Below are positions 2,421-49,297 of a DNA stretch of 64,000 nt, one piece after another. The stretch is from Cyanidioschyzon merolae. Its lineage: Eukaryota. Numbering within the stretch: the stretch's first letter is position 1; every line of letters begins with the position of its first letter. The notes under the pieces were generated by a model. The model saw only the letters and a list, made by a program, of their open reading frames with translations. It ran no database searches and was not told where the DNA came from. The stretch lies in NCBI GenBank assembly GCA_000091205.1, contig AP006485.2, one strand, 5' to 3'. The position numbers and the translations under genes are program-made.

Positions 2421-4379
2421 ATGTCTTTGGAACGCTCTAGCGCACAACGGGTTGATGCTTTGCGCAAACTCCTAGCCGCTCGCGGACTCGATGCATACCT
2501 GGTCCCTTCGGAGGACGCGCATGCCTCTGAGTACGTTGCAGCTTGTTTCCAGCGGCGGGCATTTCTGACCGGATTCACGGGCTCCGCTGGTACTGCAGTC
2601 GTTACGCGCGACCGAGCTTTTCTCTATACTGACGGGCGCTACTTTGTGCAGGCGGAACGGGAGCTCGACCCCAACGTGTGGGAACTGAAGAAACATCTCA
2701 TAGATCCACCGATGGAAGAGTTTTTGGGCACTGTGCTGGCTTCCGGATCGCGCTTGGGGTTTGATCCCGAGACGCTTTCCATCAGTGCCTTCAACAGGCT
2801 GCGCAAAGCGCTGCAGCAGCACGGCATTCACCTGGTTCCTGTTACGAACGAACAGGACGGCACGGAGAGCGCTAGCACGCGCTGCAATTTAGTGGACCTT
2901 GTATGGGGAGCCGCCCGACCAGCGGAACCTCGCTCCGTCGTTTTTCCGCATGCGCTCTGTTTTGCTGGTGAGACGGCAGCGAGCAAGGTGAGCAGGGTCC
3001 TCAACGACATGGCGAAAAACCGGGTGGACTGGCTTGTTGTTTGCGCACTTGATGAAATCACCTGGCTCTTGAACTTGCGCGGAAATGACATCGAATACAA
3101 TCCGGTTTTTCTGGCGTATGTGCTCTTACATCGACGCGCTGTCTCTGAGGCCGAAAACGAGCCCGCTGGTGACTTGTACCTGTATACCGAGCAGGAGCGC
3201 CTCAACGCTGAGGCACGCGAGGCCCTCAAGGCCCTGAAAGCTCATCTAAGGCCGTATGAGGCTATCGCCACCGACCTGGAACAGCTCATCGCTCTGGGGG
3301 ATTGTGTCTGGTATGATCCGAGTCATACGAACTGTCTTATTGGACAAAAGCTCCATCTCGCGGAGTTCAGCGAAGCAACCCTGGACAGCAACCCTGCATC
3401 CGCCAAGCATGCAAGGCATTCAATTTTGGCAAAGGCAACCCCTATCGGCCTGTTCAAAGCTCGCAAGAACGAGACGGAGCTGGCTGGTATGCGCGCTGCA
3501 CACCTGCGGGACGCCGTGGCGCTCTGTCGCTTCCTGGCGTTGCTCGAGCACAAGCTCGTCGAACAGGGCACCACAATAAATGAGATGGAGGCTGCCCAGC
3601 TCCTGGACGAGTTTCGATCGCAACAGGAGCATTTTGTTTCACCGAGCTTTCCAACGATTTCGAGTGCTGGTCCGAACGCTGCGGTTATTCATTACAGGCC
3701 GTGTGCGGAGAGCGCTCGACCGATCACGAGGGATGCGATCTATCTGGTCGATTCAGGAGGTCAGTATCTGGACGGCACTACCGATGTGACACGAACGCTG
3801 CACTTTGGCACGCCTACCGCATTGGAGCGCGAGTGCTTTACGCGCGTGCTCAAAGGCTACATCCAGCTGGAGCAGGCATGCTTTCCTCCGGGTACTACTG
3901 GTCAACAGTTGGACGTTCTGGCGAGGTTGCCGCTCTGGCTCATCGGCCGCGACTATCGGCACGGTACTGGACACGGCGTCGGATGCTTCCTGAATGTGCA
4001 CGAGGGCCCGCAAATGATAAGTCCACGGTCTTCTGCCGGTGAGACGCCCCTGGAACCCGGCATGACTGTAACGAATGAACCAGGCTACTATGAGAACGGA
4101 CGGTTTGGCATGCGATTCGAGAATGTTCTGCTGGTTGTCCCGAAGCTTCATCCCGATCACTGCATGGACCGGAAAGCATTCCTGGGGTTTGAAAACATCA
4201 CGCTGGTTCCAGTAGAGCGCAAGTTGCTGGATACCAAACTTTTGACAGAACAAGAGATCGCTTGGATCGATTCTTATCATCAGAGCGTATGGAAAGCTGT
4301 GGCGCCGCTTGTTGCGGATGACCCGTTAGCAACAAAATGGTTGCATCAACAATGTCGATCATTGCGGGCGACATGTTAA
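2421..4379 (+). CDS. Xaa-Pro aminopeptidase (aminopeptidase P, M24B metallopeptidase)
   Basis: 652-aa uninterrupted ORF. N-terminal creatinase-like region and C-terminal pita-bread domain with 'HGTGHGVGCFLNVHEGP' and 'NEPGYYENGRFGMRFENV' metal-ligand motifs typical of eukaryotic XPNPEP1-type enzymes. Confidence 0.9.
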   Translation: MSLERSSAQRVDALRKLLAARGLDAYLVPSEDAHASEYVAACFQRRAFLTGFTGSAGTAVVTRDRAFLYTDGRYFVQAERELDPNVWELKKHLIDPPMEEFLGTVLASGSRLGFDPETLSISAFNRLRKALQQHGIHLVPVTNEQDGTESASTRCNLVDLVWGAARPAEPRSVVFPHALCFAGETAASKVSRVLNDMAKNRVDWLVVCALDEITWLLNLRGNDIEYNPVFLAYVLLHRRAVSEAENEPAGDLYLYTEQERLNAEAREALKALKAHLRPYEAIATDLEQLIALGDCVWYDPSHTNCLIGQKLHLAEFSEATLDSNPASAKHARHSILAKATPIGLFKARKNETELAGMRAAHLRDAVALCRFLALLEHKLVEQGTTINEMEAAQLLDEFRSQQEHFVSPSFPTISSAGPNAAVIHYRPCAESARPITRDAIYLVDSGGQYLDGTTDVTRTLHFGTPTALERECFTRVLKGYIQLEQACFPPGTTGQQLDVLARLPLWLIGRDYRHGTGHGVGCFLNVHEGPQMISPRSSAGETPLEPGMTVTNEPGYYENGRFGMRFENVLLVVPKLHPDHCMDRKAFLGFENITLVPVERKLLDTKLLTEQEIAWIDSYHQSVWKAVAPLVADDPLATKWLHQQCRSLRATC

Positions 4380-7240: not shown

Positions 7241-8361
7241 TTAGACCGCGGAATGACGATTCGTCGGGAATGGCGAATACGCGGCGATACGCTTTGGACA
7301 CACGCTGGTACCAGCACACGAATCCTGTGCAGCGATGCGAAAAAACGCTCATCTGGAAGCGTACGAGTCGCTGGCACCGTCTGCCTGGAGGCGTATGCGA
7401 ATCCGACCTTGCGTGACCTACAGATGGTTTATAAACCGCTGATTCAAAGCTTTTTGATGAATACGCATTTCATCCTGTTGGGCGCTCCTATCGGAAACGA
7501 AGAATGCCTTGTCGTTGGCTGCATCCACAAGTCTAATGCGGCAGCAGTTGCAGCCAGAACCAATTGTCTGCTCCTTGAGCGCTCGCTCTTCGCTTGACCG
7601 ACTAGGGAACCTTCGACGGATCCGAGGCACAAGATGCACCTTCTGAAACCATACAAGCTACTGTCTTCGGTCTGTGACTGGTCCCAGGACTGATGATTCA
7701 GAAAACGCCTCTTATTGGAGCGTTCCGAGATACGTATCAAGCGCGAAGGCACCTGTCAATAAGCAATTGGCATCGACAGATAGACTCGTGCGCAAGTTGG
7801 AAAACACTGTGAAGCGACGCTACAAGCCCAATGTTGCATCTTGCCACCGATATTTAGAATGATGCACCAGCAGCAGCAACAGCAGCAGCCGGCCGTCTCA
7901 GCTCCAGCACACCCTAGTGGCGAAACGCGACGCTCGTCCGAACACGCGCAAGTCAGTGGGCGGAAGAGCCCTCGAGTCTCTCCGACATTTGCTGCGCTTC
8001 CCGTTTCCTGCGGATGTAGTCCTTCTGCTGGCAAACTTCGTAAGCGTGCCTCAGTTCGGTGCAGTGCCAAGGAAGATAAAAGTGTTCGCGGCGACAGCGG
8101 TTCAGTGGCACGAGAAGGTGCGCGCACCCGTCGCGCCACTCCAAAGGAACCTTATTCGCGATGCAGAAAGCCTCATCAACAGGTTTCGGATCGGTATCGA
8201 CGGATTCGACGTGTCTCCCCGTCATGGAAACCAGTAACGGGGTGCAAACAACTGCAACGCTAACGAGACGTTACCTCGTCGAAGCACTTCTACGGCGTTT
8301 CCCGCGCACCCGCGACGCAGTTGTGTGATGGAACGGCAGCGGCGATGCGTGCCGTCTCGCT

Positions 8362-9060
8362 GGCACGCATCCGAGCACATGAACTTGGAAGTCGGAGGTT
8401 TGATGGATCGTTTACCGCGCACTGAAAAAAAAAGTAAGAAGAGAAAAAGCGCACAATCGGATAACGCTGGACAAAGTAAACGTTTATTCAGTGAACGTAA
8501 AAGCATCCGTGCGCATGAACTTGGAAGTCGGAGGTTTGATGGATCGTTTACCGCGCACTGAAAAAAAAGTAAGAAGAGAAAAAGCGCACAATCGGATAAC
8601 GCTGGACAAAGTAAACGATTATTCAGTGAACGTAAAAGCATCCGAGCACATGAACTTGGAAGTCGGAGGTTTGATGGATCGTTTACCGCGCACTGAAAAA
8701 AAAAGTAAGAAGAGAAAAAGCGCACAATCGGATAACGCTGGACAAAGTAAACGATTATTCAGTGAACGTAAAAGCATCCGAGCACATGAACTTGGAAGTC
8801 GGAGGTTTGATGGATCGTTTACCGCGCACTGAAAAAAAGTAAGAAGAGAAAAAGCGCACAGTCGGATAACGCTGGACAAAGTAAACGTTTATTCAGTGAA
8901 AGTAAAAGCATCCGTGTGCATGAACTTGGAAGTCGGAGGTTTGATGGATCGTTTACCGCGCACTGAAAAAAAAAGTAAGAAGAGAAAAAGCGCACAATCG
9001 GATAACGCTGGACAAAGTAAACGATTATTCAGTGAACGTAAAAGCATCCGTGTGCATGCG
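8362..9060 (+). repeat. Tandem array of ~5 copies of a ~135-bp unit (near-identical copies)
   Basis: Unit 'catgaacttggaagtcggaggtttgatggatcgtttaccgcgcactgaaaaaaaaagtaagaagagaaaaagcgcacaatcggataacgctggacaaagtaaacg(a/t)ttattcagtgaacgtaaaagcatccg(t/a)gcg' recurs with period 132-137 bp starting at 8378, 8515, 8650, 8787 and 8919. Both-strand ORFs over it (8222-8725, 8491-8832) are repeat artefacts. Confidence 0.9.
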
Positions 9061-9149: not shown

Positions 9150-9590
9150 TCGATACCTGTGCTCATTCGAAGGAATAGAGAATCCACAGGAACAGGATAG
9201 AGATGGAACAAGGGGATTCTTGGAGTTTGCCATCCCTGGTATAAACAAAAAACGAAAGAATCCTCTTCTCCGTGATCATCGAGCGAAGAAGGGCACCTGA
9301 CGCAGACGAACGCGAGGAACAGGTGCGTTCAACCAGCGACAACGAACGTGTGGAGCTCGTGATCCGACACTTTAACGTCGTCATCAATAGCAGGAGATGT
9401 ATGGCGTTGAAGACAAGACCCGAGGAGCTGTGGCCAGCGAAATCTGTGGGGCAATCTTTCGGGCTTGACGTGTGTAGCGAGAAACCAAAGCCGATAGCAG
9501 TCGATCGGTCAAAAAAGACTGGTAGGCGTCTGTGCCTGGGTATCTAGTTACACTCCCGCGTTGCGGAACATGTTCGGTACTAGTGAACTG
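9150..9590 (+). pseudogene. C-terminal fragment of a TnpB/Fanzor-like RuvC nuclease (copy A; RuvC-III region, catalytic Asp replaced)
   Basis: ORF 9272-9547 '...ELVIRHFNVVINSRRCMALKTRPEELWP...KPKPIAVDRSKKTGRRLCLGI' aligns with the RuvC-III/C-terminal tails of the copies at 20.7, 29.3 and 61.6 kb ('RMEFVNRDFNAAINTRRC...', '...GGRSKNTGRRLRVG'). Truncated upstream by the tandem array. Confidence 0.55.
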
Positions 9591-11702
9591 CGTAGATGCA
9601 GAGGAAGGAAACACGTCGATTCATGCCAGATGGTCCGCAGGGCACGAGGCGCCTCAGCGAGCGACGGAGCACACTCCTTTCAAATACGTATCGCTTTTGC
9701 CGTGGATGTCAATTGTCTTTCCATGGACTTTTCGCAAACCAATCAGCCATGCACGTGCGCTGTGCTCGTTTCCAATTAAAATGAGAGACTGGACATCGCG
9801 CCCTGTTCCTGGTTTGAGCGTTTGCCGGACTTTTTGTTCAGAAGTGCAGACTCGACATTCGAAGTTGAACAACAGGAAATGATGGATTCATATCCGGTGT
9901 TACGATTCTCGGTCGTGTTGTCGACGTTGCTCGACTGTCTCTCTCTCTCTCTCCATCTCTCTCGCTGGAATTCTTCACGTCACCGGTATCAGGATGATTT
10001 CCGACGATCTCGAAAGGCGGTTTCGCAAGATAACCGCTCTCATGATGCAATGCGCATGCCCATGCATCCATACTCGTCCTTTCCTTACATGTACTGCAGC
10101 AAAATCGCGCATGCCTCAAGTTTCCAATCCTTGTTTCTCAAGATATCTCGGGTGCGTAGCCGTGCGAGCGCCTGGATTGAGGACCAAAACTACTCCGTGT
10201 TGTCCCTTGACGACCTGTTCACAAGCTCATGCCAAAACTTTGTTGAACTCGTTATCTCAAATAATCAATTCTGTTCCAAAGACAAACCCTCGATGCCTTT
10301 ACGTCATCCCAGGACCATCATTCTGCAGCAGCACGATACCTCTACCAGGTAATGCTCCCAGAGAGACCTATCTCTTGTGTTTGCCTGGGAAAGCTACTTG
10401 GACTCGAATCTGCGTCATCGCATCGATCGCTTCCAAAGGAACGCTTGTCACCGCTGTGCACGAAGCGAACGTACATGGATCGAAAGTCCCCGACTTTGCT
10501 TTCCAGTCTGGATTTAGCTTCCCATAGATGCTTCATCATGGACAACATCACGTGCCGCAAATTATCCATCGCATGCGAAAGCGAGCACTCGCGTGTGCAG
10601 CTGACGAAGTACACTCCCGGCGGATCGCTCGGGCCAGGCCCATGATCACAGGGCATGGTGCTGGACACGGAAACATAGGAGAGCATCGAGGTGAGCTTTC
10701 TGTACCTGTCAAGAGCGTCTGCGTTGTTCTGCAGAAAGCGTGCACACGCAGCAGACCGGCGTTCGGAGTAGGATGAGGTGCTGTGGACCTCACGAGATAT
10801 TTGACCACAATTGATAGTCTCCGCTGCGAACAGCGCACTGCGGATGTACATACAAAGTAGATCAATGTGGCAAGCGAACCGTATATCGCAACTGCTATCC
10901 GTGCATGAACGACGCTGCCAAGAAAAGCAAGATAGCAAATCATGACGTGAACGCTCCCACGAGCATCCTACAACTGCTGAAACCAGAGGCGACGGAAAAA
11001 GTAGAGAGCCGCGCATTTAAGGCTGGAAACAAGAGATAAGCAGGGGAAGCAGTCACAGAAAAATTCCGCAAAGCCCGGTACTGATGACTGCGAAAAGCGA
11101 CCAGCGTTTCTCTAGATACGCCCGAGTCAGGCAAGTGCACCCGTTCCGGTGTATTCTCCTGACACGGGTGCAATTGCCGACCCGCGGCGGTGAACCTCGC
11201 AAACACATTCCTCCGTCGGACACGTTCACGCAGTCGAGGGGCTCTCGCTCGCCAGCCATCACTCTGCGAAAGTTTTGGTGATGCAGAAAGCGCTCCCAGT
11301 TACGAAACACTGCAACCACCGCGCAGACTCTGGTAACTGTGCGTCGGTCTGTTCCCGCTTATGACGCGCAAATGGCAAGGCCGTGCTCCTCCGAAACGCA
11401 ACTCGTCGTCGTGTCTCCACCTGCACGTTGGACCTCGTTTCCCAATGTTTTTCTCTGCAATTTCGGGGATGCTCACCAACCTGTCCCGGTCTGCGTCACC
11501 CTGCCGGGCTACCACGAGATACTAGGGCACATTCCGTTGGCCATTGACGTCCGCACAACCACCGGGAAGGTGCGATCGGTTCCCGCCTTGTCGTCTACGC
11601 TTCCGCTCTTTGATAGGCTCTTTTCGCCGTGCATCCTTGCAAATCGTCTTTCAGGCTTTCTATGCGGTCACACTGACGAGCGCGCCTGCCGACGTTCGGT
11701 AA

Positions 11703-19400: not shown

Positions 19401-20599
19401 GAGAATCGAGATTGCATACAGAGAAAGTTCGGATATCGCCAAAAAACCAGGAAAGGAGCAAGTGTTCAAGCGCTCTCTCATATTCTGACTGATGTATTGC
19501 ATGTCTCCCGAGGCGCACTCAACGCCTGTCGGTTCACCGTCGAAATGGAATGTGTTTGTAGAGTTATGCAAGCTCTCCCGGTGATGCACATGATTTGGCC
19601 CTCATGCCCGCCTCTGGTCTTTCAACTCAGTATTGTTTCACCCCTGCTGTGGTGTATGGCAGGCGATCGAAATCCCGATGCAAAGCACTGGAGAGATCGT
19701 GGACGAACTGCCTGTAGGATATGTATTCTTCATTGAACAGTTCAAGGAGGAATGCATTCCTGCTTCCAGTCGGTCATACCGTAGTTCTCAGATAGTTGGC
19801 GAGCGACGACAGAAATAAGCTTAGAGGATCCGCCCCAAAACTGGTATTGACAAAGACTGCCTGCAGTCGATGGTAGATAACGACCCGTTGATCACGTTAC
19901 GGAAAGCAAAAGCGACTCTAGCAGACACATCGGCATGTCTGTGTGTCAACAGCTAGTTGGTGCCGTCCTGAAATCGCTCGGATACCGTCGCAAAAACAGA
20001 GTCCTAGTTCATTCACGGCCATCTTCCATTGAAGTCGCAACGACAGCCTTCTTCCTGGAACGTCGCGATCGGTATGATCCAAAAAGACGTCGGTTCGTTT
20101 TTCCACTCGATGAGACATGTTACGGAAGAAACGGTCAGAGCGTATATGTGTGTTCGCAGAAATGTCCCGTAGTGTGCACTATCGAGCTCGAAGAGATCTA
20201 TGACATCATCATCTGATCTAGCTGCAGTGGATTCCATTTGCGGCCTCAGTTCTTTTCTCTCGTAGAGAAGGCTCATACAACAGCACCCTCTTTTTGTCGA
20301 GTCATCGAAGACTGTTCCCCTGGTGTCTGGCGACGTCCTCCTATTAAAGGACATGTTATTTCACTATTCGCGTTACGGTCGAGCTGTTGCAGACTGTATT
20401 GGTTAGAGCTGGTTTCATTCCTCCGTACTCTGCGTCGTTCAATTCCGTCGAAGGAGCGTTTTCCATCGTGAGACGTAATGATCGTTTCACTGAGCGAATT
20501 GATGAAGCATTCAGCACACGGTGACATACCGGGGCTTTTTTTCTTTCTGCCTCAATTGCTGCTCGATGCGGGAAGGTCCTTATCTCTGGCTATAAACAA

Positions 20600-21045
20600 G
20601 TGCGTTCATTTTCGAAAACCACTAAGAGATGAGCTTGGATATATACTCTAGGACGTCGAGTTGTAGAGAGAGGGATGCGCAGGGCTTCTGCGATAGACTA
20701 ATACGGAGAGCTGGCAGAGCACCAAGTTCCAATGAGGACGCGAGTTCGAGGAATCCCTGCACTGGTGAGAACAACAAGACGCATCAAACGCATGGAGGTT
20801 ATGAAGCGAAACTTCGATGCCACCGTCAACGTCAGACGATGCTTGGTGCTGAAGACGATACCCGAGGAGCTGACGCGATCTACCCCTGTGGGATGGCGTC
20901 TCAGGCTCGAAATTTGCAAGGAGAAACTGAAACAGATAGCAGACGGCGGGTCAATCAAAACCGGGAGGCGTCTGCGGGCCGGTATCAATTTACCTTCCAT
21001 GCTCGTGGGACATTTTTTGTTTCACTGACATGCAAAGTCACCGTT
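20600..21045 (+). pseudogene. C-terminal fragment of a TnpB/Fanzor-like nuclease (copy B) with an in-frame stop and a mutated RuvC-III Asp
   Basis: Frame containing '...TLGRRVVERGMRRASAID*YGELAEHQVPMRTRVRGIPALVRTTRRIKRMEVMKRNFDATVNVRRCLVLKTIPEELTRS...KLKQIADGGSIKTGRRLRAG' is collinear with copy D ('CTLQTVVLEGSQRGASAIEKYGELKQHQMALKARVRGQLALVSSTRGYKRMEFANQDSNAAINIRKC...'). The TAA stop at 20699-20701 replaces a Lys codon. Confidence 0.6.
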
Positions 21046-26304: not shown

Positions 26305-27289
26305 AGAAAGGCAAGAAGAGCGTTGTTTCTAGGCAAACGTAGTGCTGAACGTCGACGGCAGACCGGATTGGTTTGGCGATTTCTCACACAATCACGAAAC
26401 GTTTCCATGAACCGTAGACCCCAGAATGCGGGATGGATGGGTATTGGTAATCGAAAAAAAGTGCACATCATGCTACTGCACCAAGTTCTATTATTCATAC
26501 TTGCTTTCGAATGTGCTGGTCGTTTCGTATGTTCTATCGCGCGCCGAGTGCCTGCTGTGAGCAGCCGCCTTAGCGCCTAGACCGCTGGAACAGATGCATC
26601 ATGGAGACAAGACGGCTTTGCCGTACCAGTGAGGGCGTCGGATCGAGGAACGCTTCACCTGATACGGAGCCGGAGTACATGGTCATTCTGGGCGCTTGCA
26701 AGCTGCGCAGACAGAACGACTGCCTGCAGAAGCTCGAAGCGATATGCTAGGAGTCTACTGCGACCAGCGCGATGCTCAGAAGCAGCCGAACCGCCGCTAG
26801 TCCCAGAATGAAGTGTGTTGCGGACGAGCTGCTCAGATCTCATTACAACATCCTCCACTTTAGAGGCACACGGAGCATGAGCCACGCAGACTCGTCCGGC
26901 TTGCGGGACCTTCCGCCTGTATGGTAAAATTTTCGAAATGCGGATAGCGCTCCCCCATGCAACGTTTACCATATAGAGGAGAAGAACCTGTCCTATCGTT
27001 GTTATTTAATGGTTCGTTTCTGTTCATGGTTCTGTATAGCATATTCGATACGCGCACCTCCATGTCTGGCAGGCATGAGATGCGGCGCGCGTTTCGCAGT
27101 GGAAGAGAAACGCGATCCTCATCGTTATCATGTTGCTCTAAAGTACAAGGTGTCTTTGCGTTGCAGTCGTACCGAACCATAGATTTCAATTCAGTTGTTT
27201 TTCAACCCTCAAGCAAGTATATTCAAGTGATTTCTCGCGGTTTATAGCTGAAGCGTTCAACGTGTGTTCATTTTCAAAAAATAAAAAAG

Positions 27290-29480
27290 GGAAGTTAGCG
27301 AAAAGCAAGTTGAGGATCCCGAAGGGCTTGTGCCGCCGGCTGCCAGAAGAATAAAAAGCATGGCGGAGCAAAGAGCAACAGGAAAAGACGAAGAAGCAAG
27401 AGAAGGAGGCCCTACGCCAAAGGCTGCAAGAAAGACGACACTGCGACGGAATGGTGCTGGAAGCCTGTCTTCTTGGACATATTAATGATCCATACTAGGA
27501 AAAGTTGCGAGAGGCCATCAGAAACCGGACCGAGTCGTTCTCCAGGAGGATTATAAAGTCTTCGTCAGGGCTAATGCATTTGGTGAAGGATATGTACGAA
27601 GACGTGACGGACATCAAAAAAGTCGAGATTGCAGAAGAATTTTGCGACCAGGCCTTTATTCCTCACCTGATGCTTGGCACCGGGGAAACGTCGACGAAAA
27701 ATGAGCGAGTGTATGCCTTCCATGAAAATCACTCCGAATTCCGCTTCGACGGTACTCGACACATGCCTGACTCGAATATTTACACGTACGGAGCAATGGA
27801 GGGCCTCACGAACCTGAAGAACCATATGATCGTGAACCTCGAACGTTTCATGATACGCACCATGTTTGCGCTGAACCCCGGCCTTTCTCGCCAGTGGATA
27901 CGGGCCATCATCAATGGCATCAAGAACGCTCGCCAGAATGGACAGGAGATCGAATTCGTCGACAAAAAGACATCACACAGGAGCATGAATAATGCTTCTG
28001 TAATTCGTGCGGCTATTCAAGAGCATCGTGCGGTCTTGGGGCTTGTCAAATCCAGCTTAAACGGTATCAGATATGAAAAGAAAATGAAGAGAAACGGTAT
28101 ACCCTCGTACTGTAGTATTCCGTGTTTCTGAACAGAGACCTCGAACGCAAGGCGGAGATCGAGCAGAGTGTGAGGAGAAAAATGAAGAGTCAGCGAAACG
28201 GAACGCTGCCCTAATGGGTAAGCGCTTCAATGTCGTTCCGCTATGCAACATCGAGTCAAATGTTGTGACAGTTGGCCCGCTACGTACTTTACAGCAAAAT
28301 GAAGGAGATCTATCCGGACTTCGATGTAAGCAGCAACGAGTTTACGGGCGAAAACCGGGAGACGTACTGGGTGAATATGTTCGATTTCAAACGTCTGAAA
28401 ACGAGCAAACAAAAGTTATTTACTGAGGTGATCGAAGCCGATGGAGCAGCCGTGTGTGTACACGATCGGCGCTTGAAAGTGGATCGTCCCATTGCATCTT
28501 CATGCTTCGCCGTCGGCGAGGCATAAAGAAAAAGAGGAGGCGGATCCTGCGACGCATGCGGTGCAGGATAAAGACTTTGTTGTTGGCGCGGACCCTACGA
28601 ACACGAATATTGTTACCGTCGCTGTACCCAAACATGCGGAAGATGGTATCAACGGCAACTTCAGAAACACATGCGTCTGTTGAGGCTCTCAAGAGCTAGA
28701 GGTTACCGAGAATGCGGTATAATGAATGCGAGGAAAAAAATTGAGAAGTGGAATGCAGGAATGAAGGATCGCCTGGAAGCTATGAGGGAGGTGACGAGCC
28801 GAGAAGCGGGCTTTGAAGCTTTTATGAAATTCATGGAAGTTCGCGTGGCTCACTGGGAGGCGCTGTGGAAAGAGAATACAAAGCCCCAGTGGGCTCGTCT
28901 ACGTATGAACCTGTACCGTAACAAGTAGCATGCATTCGCGAATTTTTTCAATGAGTTGAGTGCCCTGAAGGAGGACGAGAGACAGAGGCTCGTAATAGCA
29001 TGCGGAGCAGGGCGCTGGAAGACCCAAAAAAGCGAGTGGACCAGCTCCAACGACGATGGTGTACAAGTAGTGCGCAACGCGTTTCATTACGATACCTGTA
29101 GATGAGTTTCGAGCATCGTATACGCACCATGAACTGGGATGCACACTTCAGAGAGTGGAGATGGAAAAGTGTCAGAGAAGACCTTGGGATACAGAGAAGT
29201 GCGGAGAGCTGACAGAGCAGCAAACGTAAAGAACGGCGAAAGTTCGTGGACTCCATGCATTAGTAAGTACAACCAACGGCAAGCAACGTATGGAGTTTGT
29301 GAATCGCGACTTTAACGCAGCAATCAATACCAGGAGATGTGCGGTGATGGAAAGAAGACCTCCGGAGTTGACAAGAGAGAATTTTATGGACAACCTTCTA
29401 CGATGGAATTAGATGAGGAAAGTTGAAACCAGTAGTAGGTGGCCGGTCGAGAAAAACCGACAAGGCGTCTGCACGTCGCC
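27290..29480 (+). mobile_element. Most complete copy (C) of a TnpB/Fanzor-like RuvC-nuclease element; coding region is fragmented (pseudogene)
   Basis: AT-richer block in a GC-rich region. Collinear frames 27505-28131, 28272-28526, 28492-28683, 28671-28928 and 29030-29400. RuvC-I-like 'FVVGADPTNTNIVTVAV' lies at ~28576-28625 and RuvC-III 'RMEFVNRDFNAAINTRRC' at ~29290-29340; between them is a C-rich segment 'ELGCTLQRVEMEKCQRRPWDTEKCGEL' (possible zinc-finger remnant). Several frameshifts/stops split the reading frame. K/R-rich N-terminal peptide 'KAARKTTLRR' at ~27360. Confidence 0.65.
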
Positions 29481-30247
29481 CTAAAGGCTTCCACGCTATC
29501 GGCGTGACGTATGTGCGTTCGTATACCCGTTTTCCGGGTGGCAGTTCCCGCGCACAACGTTTCGCTTGTAGCGCCGCGACTCGAATGCCGCGGTACACGA
29601 TACGGAGTCTACTCGTGTTGGGTTGTGCTTCTTTTGCTATTTACCAAACATCGGCTTCGAAGTATGAGCCTGATGGTCGCGAAAGTATAAGATCGACTCG
29701 ACAAGCGCCCGAAAGAGGGCACAGGACGCGAGCGTCACCTGAACCAGCGAACCACAGAACCGGACAGGGAGCGATCTTGTCTGCTTTGCTGAGCACTAGT
29801 ACTGAGGGCACGTTATCGAGTGCAACGAACAGTGTAGAAGGACTGCGTATTGGTCTTACGAATCAAACGGAGGCTGCTCTTGCCAGCGTTACGCCCGTGC
29901 TGCAGCCTGATGCTGCGGAACTCGAGAACGCGTGCACTTTTCAAGCACCAGAGTTGAGCGCCTTGTCCGGAACGTCAAGTCTCATGGAAGACCTGAGCAC
30001 TGGAGCGGACTCAGTTGCCGGCACTGACAATGACAGTGATCGTTCAGAACAGATGACGCGAAACAAAATTAGAGACCGCTCGTGGTCGTTGTATCGTCAC
30101 CTGATGGATCCACCAGTTGCATCGGAGGTAGGCGTTGCAACTCCCCGTTTGCGTCGCCGCATTGGGCCGAATCCGCAGGCAGTAGGAGTCAACCCCCTTG
30201 ACTCAAGCGGCGAACGTAACGAATGCAGGGCGATGGCTCCGTCCTGA
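29423..30247 (+). CDS. Hypothetical Ser/Thr/Ala-rich ORF (274 aa); its first ~25 codons overlap the frameshifted tail of the Fanzor-like copy C
   Basis: ORF only. The start region 'KPVVGGRSRKTDKASARRPKG' is homologous to the C-terminal tails of the other Fanzor-like copies ('KLKPIAGGRSKNTGRRLRVG'), so the 5' part is element-derived. No recognisable domain. Confidence 0.2.
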   Translation: MKPVVGGRSRKTDKASARRPKGFHAIGVTYVRSYTRFPGGSSRAQRFACSAATRMPRYTIRSLLVLGCASFAIYQTSASKYEPDGRESIRSTRQAPERGHRTRASPEPANHRTGQGAILSALLSTSTEGTLSSATNSVEGLRIGLTNQTEAALASVTPVLQPDAAELENACTFQAPELSALSGTSSLMEDLSTGADSVAGTDNDSDRSEQMTRNKIRDRSWSLYRHLMDPPVASEVGVATPRLRRRIGPNPQAVGVNPLDSSGERNECRAMAPS

Positions 30248-31017
30248 ATCGAGGCTCGGGATGGATACGGCTTTGGGAGTTGAGCACTTCTGCCTCCGCA
30301 AGCTGCCGTTCACGCGCGACTTGACATGGTTCGACGGCGCTGCTTGCTCACGCGTTCAACGAAGCGCGACTCGAATGATCGTGCAGGTCGCGGTCATGGT
30401 CTGTCGCGTTCCCTAAACATTTAAAAGGACGTGACGCATTGCCCTGTCGTGAATATGCTGTCCCAATGGTCTGCTCTAGGTCTATCTGTCGGCATGTCTC
30501 TCTTGCTACGAATACGGATTCGTCCTTGAGGCATCGCACGTGCGTCGCTTGAGACCCGAAGCCATTGAATGCAAGAGCAATATCCCTATCTTTTCAGTAG
30601 GCTTCTAGAACTGCAGAAAAAACTCGCGTCCGATACGATGGATTGGGCGGAGCGGTTGCAAATCCTCGAAAGCGGAAGACTTTCGTGTCCAGTGCAACAA
30701 TCCTGTGATGGTGGACGCGTTCATCCCAGGCCGCTGCTTTCACACCATTGTCCTGAATTTTCCATGTTCATGTTCAACTCCTGTTCAACTTAAAATCTCT
30801 TTGAAACTCCCCAATCAACGCTGAACCCTTGATGCTCCGTGATGGAGACCACGGATTCGCTCTACTCAAGGCAGCAACGACCGACATGGAAGTGAGCGCA
30901 GCCAGCGCAGTCGCCACTGCACCAGAATGTCGGATAGCGTTCACAAATCGCCAGGCTGTCGCTCTGCCCGAAACCGATACGGCACTTGCGCGTGCACCAG
31001 GTCCGCGACGCCTGGAA

Positions 31018-31145
31018 TCGATTTTTTTTTCATTGACAAAACGTTTCCATTGGCCAGCGTTCTCCGATTATGCGCATTTTCCTTTTCTTACTTTTTTGTG
31101 TTATTTTTTCAGTGCACTGTGAAGTATCTATCAAACACCCTACCT
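31018..31145 (-). repeat. Diverged, inverted dispersed copy of the 135-bp repeat unit
   Basis: The reverse complement of 31028-31125 ('cttcacagtgcactgaaaaaataacacaaaaaagtaagaaaaggaaaatgcgcataatcggagaacgctggccaatggaaacgttttgtcaatga') aligns with the tandem unit core 'cgcgcactgaaaaaaaaagtaagaagagaaaaagcgcacaatcggataacgctggacaaagtaaacgtttattcagtga'. Confidence 0.75.
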
Positions 31146-31331
31146 CCATGTTCCATTACCTATACTTCGTCTCGGATATTCTGGACGTTTCATACGTCCT
31201 ATCGTGCGTGGGATCGATGCTGTGCATCCGCGGCTCGCCCGCGAATGAAGCGCGATCACGACGCGCGCATCTCATGTCCGTTTTGATCAAACGGCTATAT
31301 ATATCAGATTTGACGAATTTTCGGTGGCATT

Positions 31332-31424
31332 GCGGACGTGTCCGAGTGGTTAAGGAGAACGATTAGAAAGCGCCTAGATATCGTTTGGGCTCTGCCCGCA
31401 CAGGTTCGAATCCTGTCGTCCGCG
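31332..31424 (+). tRNA. tRNA-Ser (anticodon AGA) with an ~11-nt intron 3' of position 37
   Basis: GCGGACG/CGTCCGC acceptor stem with discriminator G. D-loop 'GAGTGGTTAAGG', anticodon stem AACGA/TCGTT, loop T-T-AGA-A then the extra 'AGCGCCTAGAT'. Long variable arm GGGC-TCT-GCCC. T-arm 'ACAGGTTCGAATCCTGT'. TATATATA lies ~35 bp upstream. Confidence 0.8.
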
Positions 31425-33599
31425 CATCATTGTTTTTATTCGATACGTGTATCTGCCCTTCTTGTACAAAACAAATCAGCGGATGAAACGCGTATGGCAG
31501 GCATGCACCAATCGGGGTACCGCCCGGCGCTAGGCATCAAAAAGGACTCGAGCGGGGCCTCGCGGCGGACGAGCTCGCCGAGCGCGACACCCGCTGCTGG
31601 ATGCAGCGCTCCGAAGCTGCAGCAGCGCACGAATACGCTGTCTGTATTCGGTAGGCATGGAATATTGTACCGCTCAGATGGTTTCTGCTTTTCGACTTTT
31701 TCCGCTCTTTGCCACAGATGCACAGCGTCGACGTTGAACGCGCTGCTCTTCTGGCTTACGGATTCATTCATTGTTTGGGATTCTCGGTCGTTTATTTTCT
31801 CGGAGTCGCTCTGCTGCCCTTGGCTGGAGGGATTCCTTACGTTACCGGAACCGAGATGAATCGTTACGTCCTCGAACAAGGATCTGGATACATAACCGAT
31901 ATCATGATGCAGTCCATGAGTACGATTGCGGACTCTTCTGCTTGACTCGTGTAGAGCACGTCCAAATCACGAATGCTTCAGCATTTCTATCTCTCTGGCT
32001 CGAGCAAGTCGTGGGCGCAGCAGTGCACCCCGCCGTATTGGCGAGGAAAACGCGTAGTGTCGTTCGTTGATGACTTGCTCACAAGCTCATGCCGAACGGT
32101 CACCGAACTCGTTACGTCAAATAACCGATTCCATTCGAAAGCCAAATTTTCCTCTCTTCGAGATCATCCCTGAGACGGCACTCGGCAGCAGCACGGTAAT
32201 GCGCTAGAGGTATGCTTCAAGAGGCTCCCGTCTCTTCTGTTTACGTGGGGCAGTGGACTTTTTCCGGACCGCGGTCATCGCAGCTATCGCTTCCAATCGA
32301 CAGGGCGCAACCGCTTTGCATGAAGAGAGCGTAGACGATTCGACATTCCCTGACTTGCTGTCCCGCCCGGAATTTCGTCCTGGTACGCACTTCATTATGG
32401 ATAACAGCGCGTTCGATGAATCCTCTGTCGGGCGGCACAACAAATGCTAGCGTAAACGACGGATTCGGTATGCACGAGGCGCGGTTGCACAGAAAAAGCA
32501 GGGGATCCGAGGATGAAGCATCCGGCGCAATAGCGATGGAGAGAAGCGAGGTTAGCCTTCGCAACTAGCTACACGTATGCGTCGAGCGATGAAACAATCC
32601 TGGAAGCATGGCACGGGCGGTGCTGTAGGAAGGCATTGTGATGGGCATTCAGGAACACCTGACCACAGTTACTTGTAACAATTACGAAGGGCGCAACGAG
32701 GCTGCACGCGAACAAATTGAAAATACCAAGCACGGGTCCTAACCTCCACCTGTGCATGCAACGAATCGACAACAGCAGGATGCTGCGAAATCAAGACTTG
32801 CACAGGGCAAACGATACATTCGATTGCCGACAGTGGAGCTGGCGTCACCGGAGTGACCGACTTATGTTAGGCACGATACTAGAGAGAGAGAGCAAAAGGA
32901 TTCAGTTGCAGAAAAAACCGACACAGGCTTTTTCTCATGATAATAGTACAACCACCAGCGTTCACAATCGACGCCCGAACTCGCCGAGCGGACCTCTTCC
33001 ATGCAATGCGCTTATGAATGTACTCATGTTCGGCGCGCGAGGCCCCGATTCAAAACAGGAGCTTTCAAGTCGCTTTTCGATACCTGATTCGCCCCCGAGA
33101 TGGACCTGAAGTCACGTGCCTCTCGCGACTTTACTGCTGCATCCCAGCAATCGCTCCTCCAAGCGGTGCGTATCGCAAATCGACTCTGCACAGAAGGCGT
33201 TTTTGCACCCTTGCCCCTTTGCGTACGGGAACGCTCGCCTCTTGGCATCCTGCGCGAACGCCTCCGGACTCCTGGGCGTACACGTTTGCTCCGCGTTCCA
33301 CTGCCACGAGTCTGAAGCACCACCAAAGCCAAAAGCTGAAACACATCCATAACGAATATGACGTAGCGAGATCGCTTGCGAGATGCACAGCGTACCTGTA
33401 CCGACTTGTGCAAACAAGCCTGGCGGCGTCGTGGTGCACTGCCTCGGCACGCGCGTCCTCGAGCCGACGCCCTCTGTATTATAGAAAAGCAGTTCTGCCC
33501 TGGTGCAGCAACCGCACCGGCGCTATAGACGCCATTGCGGTCGCGTTCGGCAGGCACTAGGCAAAAGATAGGACGTATCAAACGATCAGACTATCCGAG

Positions 33600-33760
33600 A
33601 AGAGGTTTAATTCATGTAACTTGGACGAAGAGGGTTTGATGGATACCTCACCGTGCACTGGAAAAGAAAAGAAAAGAAAGAGCGCATCATCTGAGAACGC
33701 TGGCCTAAGTAAACGTTTTGTCAATGAACGTGAAAAATCGCTTGGGGCACCGCCCTGCAC
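33600..33760 (+). repeat. Diverged dispersed copy of the 135-bp repeat unit, overlapping the predicted 5' end of the downstream ORF
   Basis: 'ggtttgatggatacctcaccgtgcactggaaaagaaaagaaaagaaagagcgcatcatctgagaacgctggcctaagtaaacgttttgtcaatgaacgtgaaaaatcg' aligns with the tandem unit at ~70-75% identity. Confidence 0.75.
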
Positions 33761-39122: not shown

Positions 39123-39275
39123 AGCACGCGCTGCGACGCTACCCTACACCCGTGTCAGGTGAAAGGAGCATACTAAAGTGCTCGGTGTTCCTGGATATCG
39201 ATTTTGTCTGAAAGCTTTTTGGTTTGTGGAATATGTATTCTACCATTGTAACAGGAAGGGCATGAGGTTTCATAT

Positions 39276-40484
39276 GTAATTAAGGGATTCTCGGCCGTCT
39301 TTTCTGACATGCTTGTTCGACGCTCTGCCGTCGAAACGCAGGGAGGCTCGGGAGCCAAGACGATTTGCAACGAAATCGAGCTAGGGCTGGTAAAACAAGC
39401 GTTAGCACGATTTAATGCATACATACAAGCCTTTTGCATGTGCGTACCCTTCCGTGCAGCACGCTCGATTCACGCATGCTTCCAGTTTTCGACCGCTCTG
39501 TTTCAGGGCTGCTCGTGCGCGCACCAATACCTACTGCGTATGCGGCTCGGCGAAGTGCTCAACGCCATCTCTTGACGGGCTGTTCGCAAACTCGTGCCGA
39601 ACACTCACCGGACCTGTCATCTTCAGATGATCATCGATTTCGTTCGATAGACAAACTCGCACCTCGTACCCGCCATCGACGAGGCGTCATTCCGCAGCAG
39701 CTGCATATCCCGCACGGAATATGCTCACAGAAGCGCTCCCGTCTCTTCGGGTGCATCGAAGGGCGTCACGGAGTCGGACGTTGGTCGTCGCTGCGATGGA
39801 TTTCATAGGAGAGCGCGTACACGCTTTTCAGTGGGAAGGCGTCGGGCGGTCGAAGTCCTGCGACTTGTCCTCCAGCCAGGGGACTCGCTCCGGTGTATTT
39901 TGCATCGCGGATAGCATTGCATTCCAGAAACCCTCGATCGATTGGAACGTCGTTCGCCTGCGTGTCCAGCGCGCAGAGTACTCGCTGAGCGGACAGCGCA
40001 GAAGACGCCCCTAGTCGCAGGGTACGCCAACAGGCGCTGAAACGTGTGATGGCATGCGAGGGAAGCTTTCCTCGCCCGTCGAGTGCATATACCTATGCGA
40101 TGAAGCGTACCCTCCGGAGCCTCAGGGCGGTTCTCCGCGGAGGAGGTTTGGTCGACATATAGGACAACGCAACCAGGCACCAGTCGCATATCTGGAAGAA
40201 GGTGCGTCGACGCAGTGTACAACGAACGTGAGAGTGGAAAGCGATGCGTAGGACACAACCAGCGCCTGCACATGAAATGCGTCGCTCTTTGCTGCAATCG
40301 GTGAACTCGTGGCTTGAATGGTGCCAGCACCACCGTTGGACGGCTTCCAAGAGAGCTGGAGGAAAAACATGAACCATTGTATGTAAAGCCGAAGATAAGA
40401 GAGAGAGAGACAGAGTAGGGAAGCAGTCGCAGAGGAAGCCAGCAAAGGCTGGTGTCGTTGACAATTGGAAGAGACCCAAACTTT
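39276..40484 (+). repeat. 1,209-bp direct repeat, copy 1 (~99.5% identical to 48089-49297)
   Basis: Base-for-base alignment with copy 2 at a constant offset of 8,813 bp; only a handful of mismatches. Boundaries are defined by abrupt loss of identity ('catat|gtaatt...aaacttt|agaacg'). The ORFs on it (39309-39575, 39434-39808, 39803-40591) are duplicated verbatim and have no recognisable domains. Confidence 0.9.
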
Positions 40485-47714: not shown

Positions 47715-48088
47715 CAAGTATTTGCTCGGCTCGCAAAGCACGTATTCTTGTCTGATCTAGCCTATCACGCAGCATTGCCCGAGCTCACAGAACGATTCAG
47801 TCTTGGGCGTCGGCACAAAGCATCGCCTCGAGAGCATGCGTTGGAACGCCACGTCGCTTGCGTACTCGACGAAAAGATGAAGTCGCTTGTCCTTCGCCCC
47901 ATCAGCAATGCCATGCCACAAATGGACACGTCATTTCCACAGGCAGAGCGCGTTACCTGCCACAAAGACGCAATTCTTGATCCTGCTATACATGCATTGA
48001 ACTCCACAGTACTCGGGTATTTCGAGAATAAAGTAGTTGGAAGGAGACATGTGGGCGACATGCATTGCAGCACATTTCGTATTCTTAC

Positions 48089-49297
48089 GTAATTTAGGGA
48101 TTCTCGGCCGTCTTTTCTGACATGCTTGTTCGACGCTCTGCCGTCGAAACGCAGGGAGGCTCGGGAGCCAAGACGATTTGCAACGAAATCGAGCTAGGGC
48201 TGGTAAAACAAGCGTTAGCACGATTCAATGCATACATACAAGCCTTTTGCATGTGCGTACCCTTCCGTGCAGCACGCTCGATTCACGCATGCTTCCAGTT
48301 TTCGACCGCTCTGTTTCAGGGCTGCTCGTGCGCGCACCAATACCTACTGCGTATGCGGCTCGGCGAAGTGCTCAACGCCATCTCTTGACGGGCTGTTCGC
48401 AAACTCGTGCCGAACACTCACCGGACCTGTCATCTTCAGATGATCATCGATTTCGTTCGATAGACAAACTCGCACCTCGTACCCGCCATCGACGAGGCGT
48501 CATTCCGCAGCAGCTGCATATCCCGCACGGAATATGCTCACAGAAGCGCTCCCGTCTCTTCGGGTGCATCGAAGGGCGTCACGGAGTCGGACGTTGGTCG
48601 TCGCTGCGATGGATTTCATAGGAGAGCGCGTACACGCTTTTCAGTGGGAAGGCGTCGGGCGGTCGAAGTCCTGCGACTTGTCCTCCAGCCAGGGGACTCG
48701 CTCCGGTGTATTTTGCATCGCGGATAGCATTGCATTCCAGAAACCCTCGATCGATTGGAACGTCGTTCGCCTGCGTGTCCAGCGCGCAGAGTACTCGCTG
48801 AGCGGACAGCGCAGAAGACGCCCCTAGTCGCAGGGTACGCCAACAGGCGCTGAAACGTGTGAGGGCATGCGAGGGATGCTTTCCTCGCCCGTCGAGTGCA
48901 TATACCTATGCGATGAAGCGTACCCTCCGGAGCCTCAGGGCGGTTCTCCGCGGAGGAGGTTTGGTCGACATATAGGACAACGCAACCAGGGACCAGTCGC
49001 ATATCTGGAAGAAGGTGCGTCGACGCAGTGTACAACGAACGTGAGAGTGGAAAGCGATGCGTAGGACACAACCAGCGCCTGCACATGAAATGCGTCGCTC
49101 TTTGCTGCAATCGGTGAACTCGTGGCTTGAATGGTGCCAGCACCACCGTTGGACGGCTTCCAAGAGAGCTGGAGGAAAAACATGAACCATTGTATGTAAA
49201 GCCGAAGATAAGAGAGAGAGAGACAGAGTAGGGAAGCAGTCGCAGAGGAAGCCAGCAAAGGCTGGTGTCGTTGACAATTGGAAGAGACCCAAACTTT
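48089..49297 (+). repeat. 1,209-bp direct repeat, copy 2
   Basis: See copy 1. Identical except for a few substitutions (e.g. 'gattcaatgc' vs 'gatttaatgc'; 'gtgagggcatgcgagggatgc' vs 'gtgatggcatgcgagggaagc'). Confidence 0.9.

Follow-up and report, generated by a model that had tools for sequence, protein, structure and literature searches.

Introduction

An A-rich tail, 5' truncation and target-site duplications (TSDs) of variable length together form the classical signature of target-primed reverse transcription, by which LINE copies are recognised. SINEs in the strict sense have an internal polymerase III promoter in a 5' head derived from a tRNA, 5S RNA or 7SL RNA, whereas satellite DNA has long homogeneous tandem arrays as its main form. 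The guide RNAs of TnpB and Fanzor nucleases, another class of non-coding sequence found with mobile elements, sit at the 3' end of the nuclease ORF.

For the red alga Cyanidioschyzon merolae, 26 non-LTR retrotransposons have been counted in the genome, three of them with an intact reverse transcriptase (RT) ORF (Nozaki et al. 2007, PMC1955436). Two other repeats of the same genome were described by Bao & Jurka (2013, PMC3627910): TE-N2_CMe, with a length of 635 bp and ~70 copies, and the Fanzor1 element CMe-1A, with a length of ~3 kb and ~150 copies. The 5' 635 bp of CMe-1A are 95% identical to the whole of TE-N2_CMe (PMC3627910). Both were reported to be without terminal inverted repeats (TIRs) and were left unclassified, and the TSDs of CMe-1A were undeterminable (PMC3627910).

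The present study concerns a short tandem array in a stretch of 64,000 nt of C. merolae DNA, hereafter the window, together with two related single (solo) copies in the same window. An original prediction, made from the DNA letters without database searches, had held that the ~135-bp unit of this array behaves like a MITE, a satellite or a small structured RNA gene family. Our analysis indicates that the unit is very probably a dead, heavily 5'-truncated LINE 3' tail that was inserted once and then locally amplified. The feature exists, and known biology accounts for it in full as ordinary genomic debris; neither the array nor the solo copies imply a host function, and the significance for biology at large is little.

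Results and discussion

Setting and structure of the array

With ~54% G+C, the window is eukaryotic DNA poor in introns. Its genes include those for aminopeptidase P (652 aa), anthranilate phosphoribosyltransferase, APC2, a TRCF-like helicase, a PHD/TFIIS_M protein, RPC5 and phosphoglucomutase, and its repeats include four Fanzor-like copies, a degenerate repeat of ~1.3 kb (repeat X) and a near-perfect duplicate of 1216 bp. The aminopeptidase P matches BAM79029.1 of C. merolae 10D without a difference from end to end, in keeping with a window from this strain or a nearly identical one.

Tandem Repeats Finder (TRF) reported an array at 8367-9050 with a period of 136, 5.1 copies, 96% matches and a score of 1284, as well as a row of period 270. 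In-register alignment resolved five units of 136, 135, 136, 134 and 136 bp, an A-run of 7-9 being the main source of the length difference, and these are 94-99% identical in pairwise comparison; the two analyses bear out the head-to-tail array of near-identical ~135-bp units that had been predicted. Each unit consists of a 15-nt spacer, GCATCCG(A/T)G(C/T)(A/G)CATG, followed by a stub of ~120 nt of LINE 3' tail ending in the A-rich run. A sixth copy of the spacer closes the array, giving five successive spacer-stub pairs plus a spacer, so that the 15-mer sits both 5' of the first stub and 3' of the last (Table 1). Against the consensus of the repeat family described below, the units align to positions 171-312 at 86% identity. 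A core sequence, GAKAACGCTGGNCNANGNAAACG, occurs exactly seven times in the window versus 0.00 expected from 100 shuffles, in agreement with the claim of a core common to all copies. The array was also correctly placed directly upstream of Fanzor-like fragment A, which lies 260 nt downstream of it.

Table 1 Repeat features of the window, with positions counted from its first letter
Feature	Position	Strand	Evidence
Tandem array, five units and closing 15-nt spacer	8367-9058	+	TRF, register, unit identity
Array unit 1	8367-8502	+	Register
Array unit 2	8503-8637	+	Register
Array unit 3	8638-8773	+	Register
Array unit 4	8774-8907	+	Register
Array unit 5	8908-9043	+	Register
Closing 15-nt partial unit (sixth spacer copy)	9044-9058	+	
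Fanzor1-like 3' fragment A, C-terminal RuvC-III region	9319-9591	+	blastn, tblastx to copies B, C and D
Fanzor-like copy B	19598-21033		
Inverted internal LINE 3' UTR fragment, forming the 5' end of Fanzor-like copy C	26481-26714	-	
Fanzor-like copy C	~26715-29507		
TSD of minus-strand solo, 3' copy, 10 bp, ATCGATTCCA on the element strand	31013-31022	-	
Single 5'-truncated LINE tail, 186 nt, ending in A9 (minus-strand solo)	31023-31208	-	blastn, consensus alignment (91%)
TSD of minus-strand solo, 5' copy, ATCGATCCCA on the element strand	31209-31218	-	
Single 5'-truncated LINE tail, 284 nt, 87% to consensus (plus-strand solo)	33457-33740	+	Local alignment
Fanzor-like copy D	62858-61432		

Solo copies in the window

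Diverged single copies had been proposed at 31018-31145 (inverted) and at 33600-33760. Their presence was borne out, although the extents were not, both copies being larger than predicted (Table 1). A blastn search with the array unit recovered them at 33613-33735 (77.8% identity, E 1e-22) and at 31153-31029 on the minus strand (75.2%, E 2e-19), values far beyond chance, and the two solos align to each other over 190 bp at 75% identity (E 1e-30). Both are older, independent truncated insertions of the same LINE family as the array.

Among the metagenome matches listed, the copy closest to the minus-strand solo is L038 (88%). The 10-bp TSD of this solo has one mismatch in the window and is exact in a 99.5%-identical contig (L028). 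The plus-strand solo begins with CCTCGAGCC, a 5' end that recurs in the family; a local alignment with a family member of 570 nt has its first position at exactly 33457, upstream of which LINE similarity scores no better than shuffles. A TSD is not recognisable around this copy; that of the minus-strand solo measures 10 bp and the array spacer 15 nt. The PHD/TFIIS_M gene has its ATG (33816) 75 nt downstream of the end of the plus-strand solo. We also considered the two inverted solos as the TIRs of a single 2.7-kb element (31016-33743) and rejected this, each solo being an independent tail with its own ends.

A dispersed family with LINE-type ends

Copies of the family were gathered by scanning metagenome contigs with a 23-nt pattern that lies inside the tail, and at least 120 contigs held matches. 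Of the 128 pattern sites among the matches listed, 118 can be aligned with the window copies for 60-190 nt beyond the pattern, with 73-88% identity. Merging of near-identical contigs left at least ~75 distinct copies among the matches listed, a count that is biased by the pattern-based sampling, as is the apparent conservation of the pattern stretch, and that is not a copy number per genome, the contigs representing mixed natural Cyanidioschyzon strains. With this many other genomic copies, the sequence of the array is not unique to its locus. Several contigs (L028, L057, L092, L019 and L125-L128) are the window's own loci at 99.0-99.5% identity, so strains closely related to that of the window are present in the samples.

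In an alignment of 73 copies the family has a sharp 3' end, column identity dropping from 80-99% to ~35% just after ...GTTTTGTCAATGAAAAAAA, and conservation extends far upstream of this common end. The terminal A-run differs in length among copies. The 5' ends form a truncation ladder ranging from ~45 to >2800 nt: on the coordinates of a long copy, the matches all stop at 1350-1356 and start at positions 2, 79, 94, 700, 783-789, 880, 940, 1064, 1156-1176, 1202, 1215-1233, 1256 and 1271-1309. The recurrent ends at 783-789, 1064 and 1215-1233 are more clustered than random truncation predicts.

Flanking direct repeats of 10-26 bp (score >=10) were found in 28 of 70 copies versus 1 of 207 mismatched-flank controls, the test comparing the sequence after the A-run with the region upstream of the copy and the controls using the flank of another copy. 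Examples include ATGGACCAGGGGT (L025), ATCCACCGTGTGTCGT (L059) and a duplication of 23 bp (L098), as well as CATCACGCGCAT and TCGATCRGTGCAT around copies of ~570 nt. Many of the TSDs start with ATCG or ATCC. One family copy of 130 nt is inserted in a Fanzor body, for which the uninterrupted Fanzor-like copy C of the window provides the empty site; this insert is bounded by GAGCGTCGTG and GAGCATCGTG, and the duplication reads GAGCRTCGTG. Inverted terminal repeats of at least 10 bp were absent from the three family members searched. The common 3' end, the truncation ladder, the variable TSDs and the lack of inverted termini therefore argue for target-primed reverse transcription and not for a cut-and-paste transposon.

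Continuity with a reverse transcriptase-encoding LINE

Measured from the common 3' end, the longest family copies are at least 2880 nt long, and a 2880-nt stretch of one contig (L077 12852-9973, minus strand; L077rc) was used as the LINE reference. An ORF on this contig, L077:11477-12256(-), matches the Pfam family RVT_1 (E 2.6e-23, 83 bits versus a cut-off of 29.6), and at four loci 1495-1510 nt separate the end of the RT match from the end of the tail, which lies downstream on the same strand. No endonuclease domain was seen on the contigs, which stop inside or just upstream of the RT region, and the sole longer ORF (L044) is without a Pfam match. As to its relatives, the L077 ORF is 85-89% identical to two proteins of C. 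merolae 10D annotated as 'retroelement, alive', followed by a Galdieria reverse transcriptase at 48%.

By virtue of this physical continuity between tail and RT ORF, the unit is the end of a LINE 3' UTR, namely the last ~120 nt of the ~415-nt 3' UTR of a >2.8-kb RT-encoding non-LTR retrotransposon. For the window copies the LINE assignment rests on the related metagenome contigs and not on window sequence, no RT-coding copy having been found within the 64,000-nt window. The family shares its 3' end with RT-encoding copies and has an A-rich terminus, TSDs and 5' truncation that are all variable. It resembles the LINEs of C. merolae 10D in the RT ORF upstream of the tail, but the window differs in holding tail stubs of 120-290 nt only, with no coding part. 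That the unit is non-coding, as originally predicted, and is repeat DNA of mobile-element origin is thus upheld by the LINE tail and by the RT ORF upstream of it in longer copies. Repeat X (9805-11147 and relatives) is not contained within the last 2.9 kb of the LINE.

Origin and growth of the array

Following the established LINE model, RNA of the LINE, or of a short derivative with the same tail, would have been reverse-transcribed at a nicked target from its A-rich 3' end, and reverse transcription would have halted after ~120 nt to leave a stub with an A-rich tail. The insertion would have been flanked by a 15-bp target duplication, GCATCCGxGxxCATG. The stub may then have been duplicated together with its spacer through unequal exchange, or through slippage during replication, involving the two 15-bp copies, and later exchange between whole units could have raised the number from two to five. 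Under such a course of events the pre-insertion site would read ...CTGGCAC GCATCCGxGxxCATG CGTGAGCC..., with the 15-mer present once. No empty-site allele of the array locus was found in the metagenome contigs searched. One contig (L129) was considered as such an allele and rejected; it diverges into unrelated sequence 71 nt before the array and is probably chimeric.

The copy number of the array is polymorphic. Three contigs with flanks 99.0-99.4% identical to those of the window (L125, L126 and L127) carry the insertion at the array's site with two units and three spacers, so that near-identical wild strains have two units versus five in the window. Two arrays of the same kind, independent of this one, were also observed directly: one (L027/L070/L107) has a period of ~150 and is itself flanked by its 22-nt spacer, and the other (L051) consists of 2 x 63 nt, separated and flanked by GCTGGAATGCGCA, a spacer unrelated to the LINE. 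The motif ATCCGAG is contained in the spacers of both the window array and the L027-type array, and the LINE has it too, ~25 nt 5' of the point at which the stub is truncated; the array spacer may therefore derive in part from the element, or the target preference may be similar.

The units of the window array lie 14% from the consensus but only 1-6% apart, and so the insertion is older than the expansion. Together with the diverged solos, the 94-99% identity among units fits the predicted combination of old dispersed copies and a young local expansion. The locus has the hallmarks of other arrays born from transposable element insertions, in that element and spacer alternate and a spacer closes the row, the spacer is the TSD, copy number varies between strains and the units are far more alike than dispersed copies are; it differs in being very small (2-5 units) and in showing no sign of a functional satellite. 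It provides a clean small case of tandem growth from a single retroposon insertion, with two units in the wild and five here.

Alternative readings of the unit

Like MITEs, the family is short, non-coding and dispersed in gene-poor, transposon-rich patches, beside other transposon remains. A DNA transposon moved by a transposase, with the array arising through repeated insertion, is nonetheless extremely improbable: the two element ends are unrelated, with no inverted repeats of at least 10 bp in the three members searched, the TSDs are not of one fixed length, an A-rich tail and a ladder of 5' truncations characterise the family, and the array units share one truncation point at an identity that indicates duplication, not separate insertions. 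Nor is the unit an independent satellite or a free-standing 135-bp element, since it is the 3' end of a LINE and since the main form of the family is the dispersed single copy, the arrays having 2-5 units. Small structured RNA genes, such as the omega RNA of the neighbouring Fanzor nuclease, would be in keeping with the high conservation of the last ~60 nt, although the search pattern itself accounts for some of the conservation seen in the tail, and with the physical association of this non-coding sequence with Fanzor elements. This reading is highly improbable. Consistent with the original statement that no known RNA family could be assigned, an Rfam scan at gathering scores left the window without a match, and one of the array stayed empty up to E 1; folding z-scores versus shuffles were +0.5, -0.6, 0.0, +1.2 and +1.6; RNAalifold on 36 copies returned -1.0 kcal/mol and zero covarying pairs; and the sole plausible stem, of 6 bp and picked by hand, was no better than column shuffles (323/500). 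The tail furthermore lies 5' of the Fanzor ORF in the composites, the wrong side for a guide RNA, most copies are solo with TSDs of their own and the tail retroposes on its own; in the Fanzor copies the 3' region is non-coding, conserved and distinct from the tail. We accordingly rejected the unit as a Fanzor guide RNA or right end, both for its position and for its lack of structure. As for a coding exon, array unit 1 and the plus-strand solo (ATG 33639) share an open frame, the ORF of the solo continues in frame into the PHD gene, and a basic, nuclear-localisation-like peptide (MD..P.T.K..KKRKSA.S.NAG.SKR...ER.KS) could be read as the N-terminus of downstream genes such as PHD/TFIIS. We find this barely credible. 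The unit lengths (134-136) are not kept to multiples of three and the A-run of 7-9 shifts the frame between units; the minus-strand solo has ATA for ATG and a frameshift; the family consensus has a stop in the coding frame; and a manual codon comparison of array and solo gave ~4 synonymous and 11 non-synonymous changes, hence no purifying selection. The ORFs across the unit are artefacts, as had been suspected.

A further alternative leaves the insertion mechanism unchanged and differs in the source RNA alone: the array founder and the solos would stem from a discrete SINE-like element of ~290 or ~570 nt, probably TE-N2_CMe, copied by the LINE enzyme. We consider this possible, albeit doubtful. 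The recurrence of 5' ends in independent TSD-flanked insertions points to discrete short source elements, with at least eight distinct copies beginning at TACCTTCTAGG (~570 nt) and several at CCTCGAGCC (~290 nt), and the description of TE-N2_CMe as a repeat in its own right (Bao & Jurka, PMC3627910) speaks in the same direction. Many other 5' ends exist, however, and some copies reach into the RT ORF. The short classes are also without a tRNA-, 5S- or 7SL-like head in an Rfam E-value scan, which for a complete member of 420 nt gave only a chance snoRNA match (E 0.44), and they are thus not SINEs in the strict sense. The stub in the array is itself too short to separate the two source RNAs.

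Relation to TE-N2_CMe

The family is probably Repbase TE-N2_CMe, matched by its published description only. The two agree in length class, in copy number, in the absence of TIRs and in the relation to a Fanzor1 element, and the ~570-nt class is common here as a free-standing form. TE-N2_CMe was published as unclassified, whereas the free-standing copies examined here have A-rich tails, variable TSDs and continuity with the RT ORF. What is newly added is therefore a classification, in that a family left unclassified in 2013 (probably TE-N2_CMe) behaves as the 3' end of a C. merolae LINE. A candidate for an unknown RNA or MITE is thereby placed in a repeat family of a model alga whose genome is fully sequenced.

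The Fanzor neighbourhood

Fanzor-like copies were assigned by eye from D/E/D RuvC motifs and with reference to Bao & Jurka (2013). Fragment A has 48-50% amino-acid identity to the C-terminal RuvC-III region of the other Fanzor-like copies of the window. Pfam detected no TnpB domains in the Fanzor-like ORFs, and a Fanzor composite assembled by hand had no match up to E 1 when its sequence was searched against solved structures.

A connection between the repeat and the Fanzor-like copies holds at the level of the family, where the LINE tail forms the 5' part of Fanzor1 elements, but does not hold for the array, which is a separate insertion beside a 3' fragment. At four loci (L003, L023, L038 and L068) a LINE tail in direct orientation runs straight into the Fanzor body, and the four junctions are homologous, a likeness to the published structure of CMe-1A. 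Inverted LINE pieces of 175-235 nt stand directly upstream of the Fanzor body at at least eight other loci, and the inverted fragment at the 5' end of copy C in the window is of this kind, matching positions 2522-2758 of L077rc at 67% identity. The array, by comparison, was retroposed separately as a stub, has a flanking repeat of its own and lies among nested transposon remains. We also considered the Fanzor elements as retroposed cargo of the LINE and rejected this, their 3' ends being without an A-rich tail and ending in a conserved ...GAA(A/C)GGCGTTTGTTGTCGGCG.

Whether carried as a portable promoter or 5' leader, or because Fanzor1 elements depend on the LINE for expression or mobility, a functional part for the LINE tail is a candidate that we judge quite unlikely. 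The LINE-derived 5' module is nevertheless relevant to studies of the spread of Fanzor1 in C. merolae.

With regard to position, sense copies of the tail sit upstream of a Fanzor1 body (CMe-1A type), of the PHD/TFIIS gene at 33816 and of fragment A. At three loci >1.3-2.8 kb of LINE sequence precede the Fanzor body, as expected if the two were once one transcript.

Fanzor1-like copies and their flanking sequences

All four Fanzor1-like copies in the window, which are of the type of CMe-1A, the Fanzor1 family of C. merolae, are interrupted by frameshifts or stops. Searches of Pfam and of PDB sequences returned no match to these copies; RuvC-like motifs, namely DEFRTS, NRDFNAAIN and, in relatives, GADSGNTN, were read by eye. 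At the 5' end, Fanzor elements contain 3' UTR sequence of the C. merolae LINE, a non-LTR retrotransposon, which occurs in both orientations (26481-26714 in the window, as well as metagenome loci L003, L023, L038, L068 and L100). In the last three of these loci the LINE part preceding the Fanzor body exceeds 1.3-2.8 kb and includes the reverse-transcriptase region.

A non-coding stretch 3' of the Fanzor ORF is also conserved, reading ...GGAGGCGTCTGCACGTCAGTTGGAGACG...CTGTACACC...CGTTCGACTTAGAACGGCGTTTGTTGTCGGCG, with divergence beyond. This region is a candidate for a guide-RNA scaffold or for the element's right end. The 3' tail common to copies A, B and D is unlike that of copy C. In L023, an ORF of 359 aa (2943-4022) separates a Fanzor 3' end from the LINE tail that comes next; it contains a DNA-binding motif of the NUMOD3 type (E 1.5e-6).

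Coordinates of Fanzor-associated and repeated features (window positions unless a locus is named)
Feature	Location	Strand	Remark
Fanzor1-like copy A	9319-9591	+	CMe-1A-type
Fanzor1-like copy B	19598-21033	+	CMe-1A-type
Fanzor1-like copy C	26715-29507	+	CMe-1A-type
Fanzor1-like copy D	62858-61432	-	CMe-1A-type
Conserved region 3' of Fanzor ORF	29440-29507; L003 8540-8700; L023 2800-2960; 15 other loci		
Repeat X	9805-11147	+	~1.3 kb, degenerate
Repeat X	19445-18310	-	~1.3 kb, degenerate
Repeat X	31681-33000	+	~1.3 kb, degenerate
Direct duplicate	39269-40484 and 48082-49297		1216 bp, 99.4% identity

Other repeats and the array boundary

The window copies of repeat X are ~60% identical to one another, with stops in every frame. 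Its core (32060-32245) was found again near LINE tails in ~20 metagenome loci, and the last 2.9 kb of the LINE do not contain the repeat. Each copy of the direct duplicate holds an ORF of ~250-260 aa lacking a Pfam match.

Metagenome contig L129 (6238-7328) is 99.1% identical to the window except from window position 8296 on, 71 nt before the tandem array of LINE tails, where its sequence is unrelated; this break reflects chimeric assembly or else a structural variant. At the left edge of the array, visual inspection of the sequence shows a perfect inverted repeat of 10 bp, GATGCGTGCC...GGCACGCATC, with a loop of 8 nt (8345-8372). It crosses that edge and extends into the start of the first spacer.

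Surroundings of the solo LINE stubs

The plus-strand LINE stub, a 5'-truncated 3' end starting at 33457, stops 75 nt upstream of the ATG (33816) of a like-oriented PHD/TFIIS_M gene, and an open ORF runs from an ATG within the stub (33639) into that gene. Part of the gene's promoter or leader may come from the stub. About 120 nt separate the end of the minus-strand stub (31208) from the start of a 93-nt tRNA gene (31332-31424, +), which was detected by Rfam (48 bits) but missed by ARAGORN and apparently has an intron.
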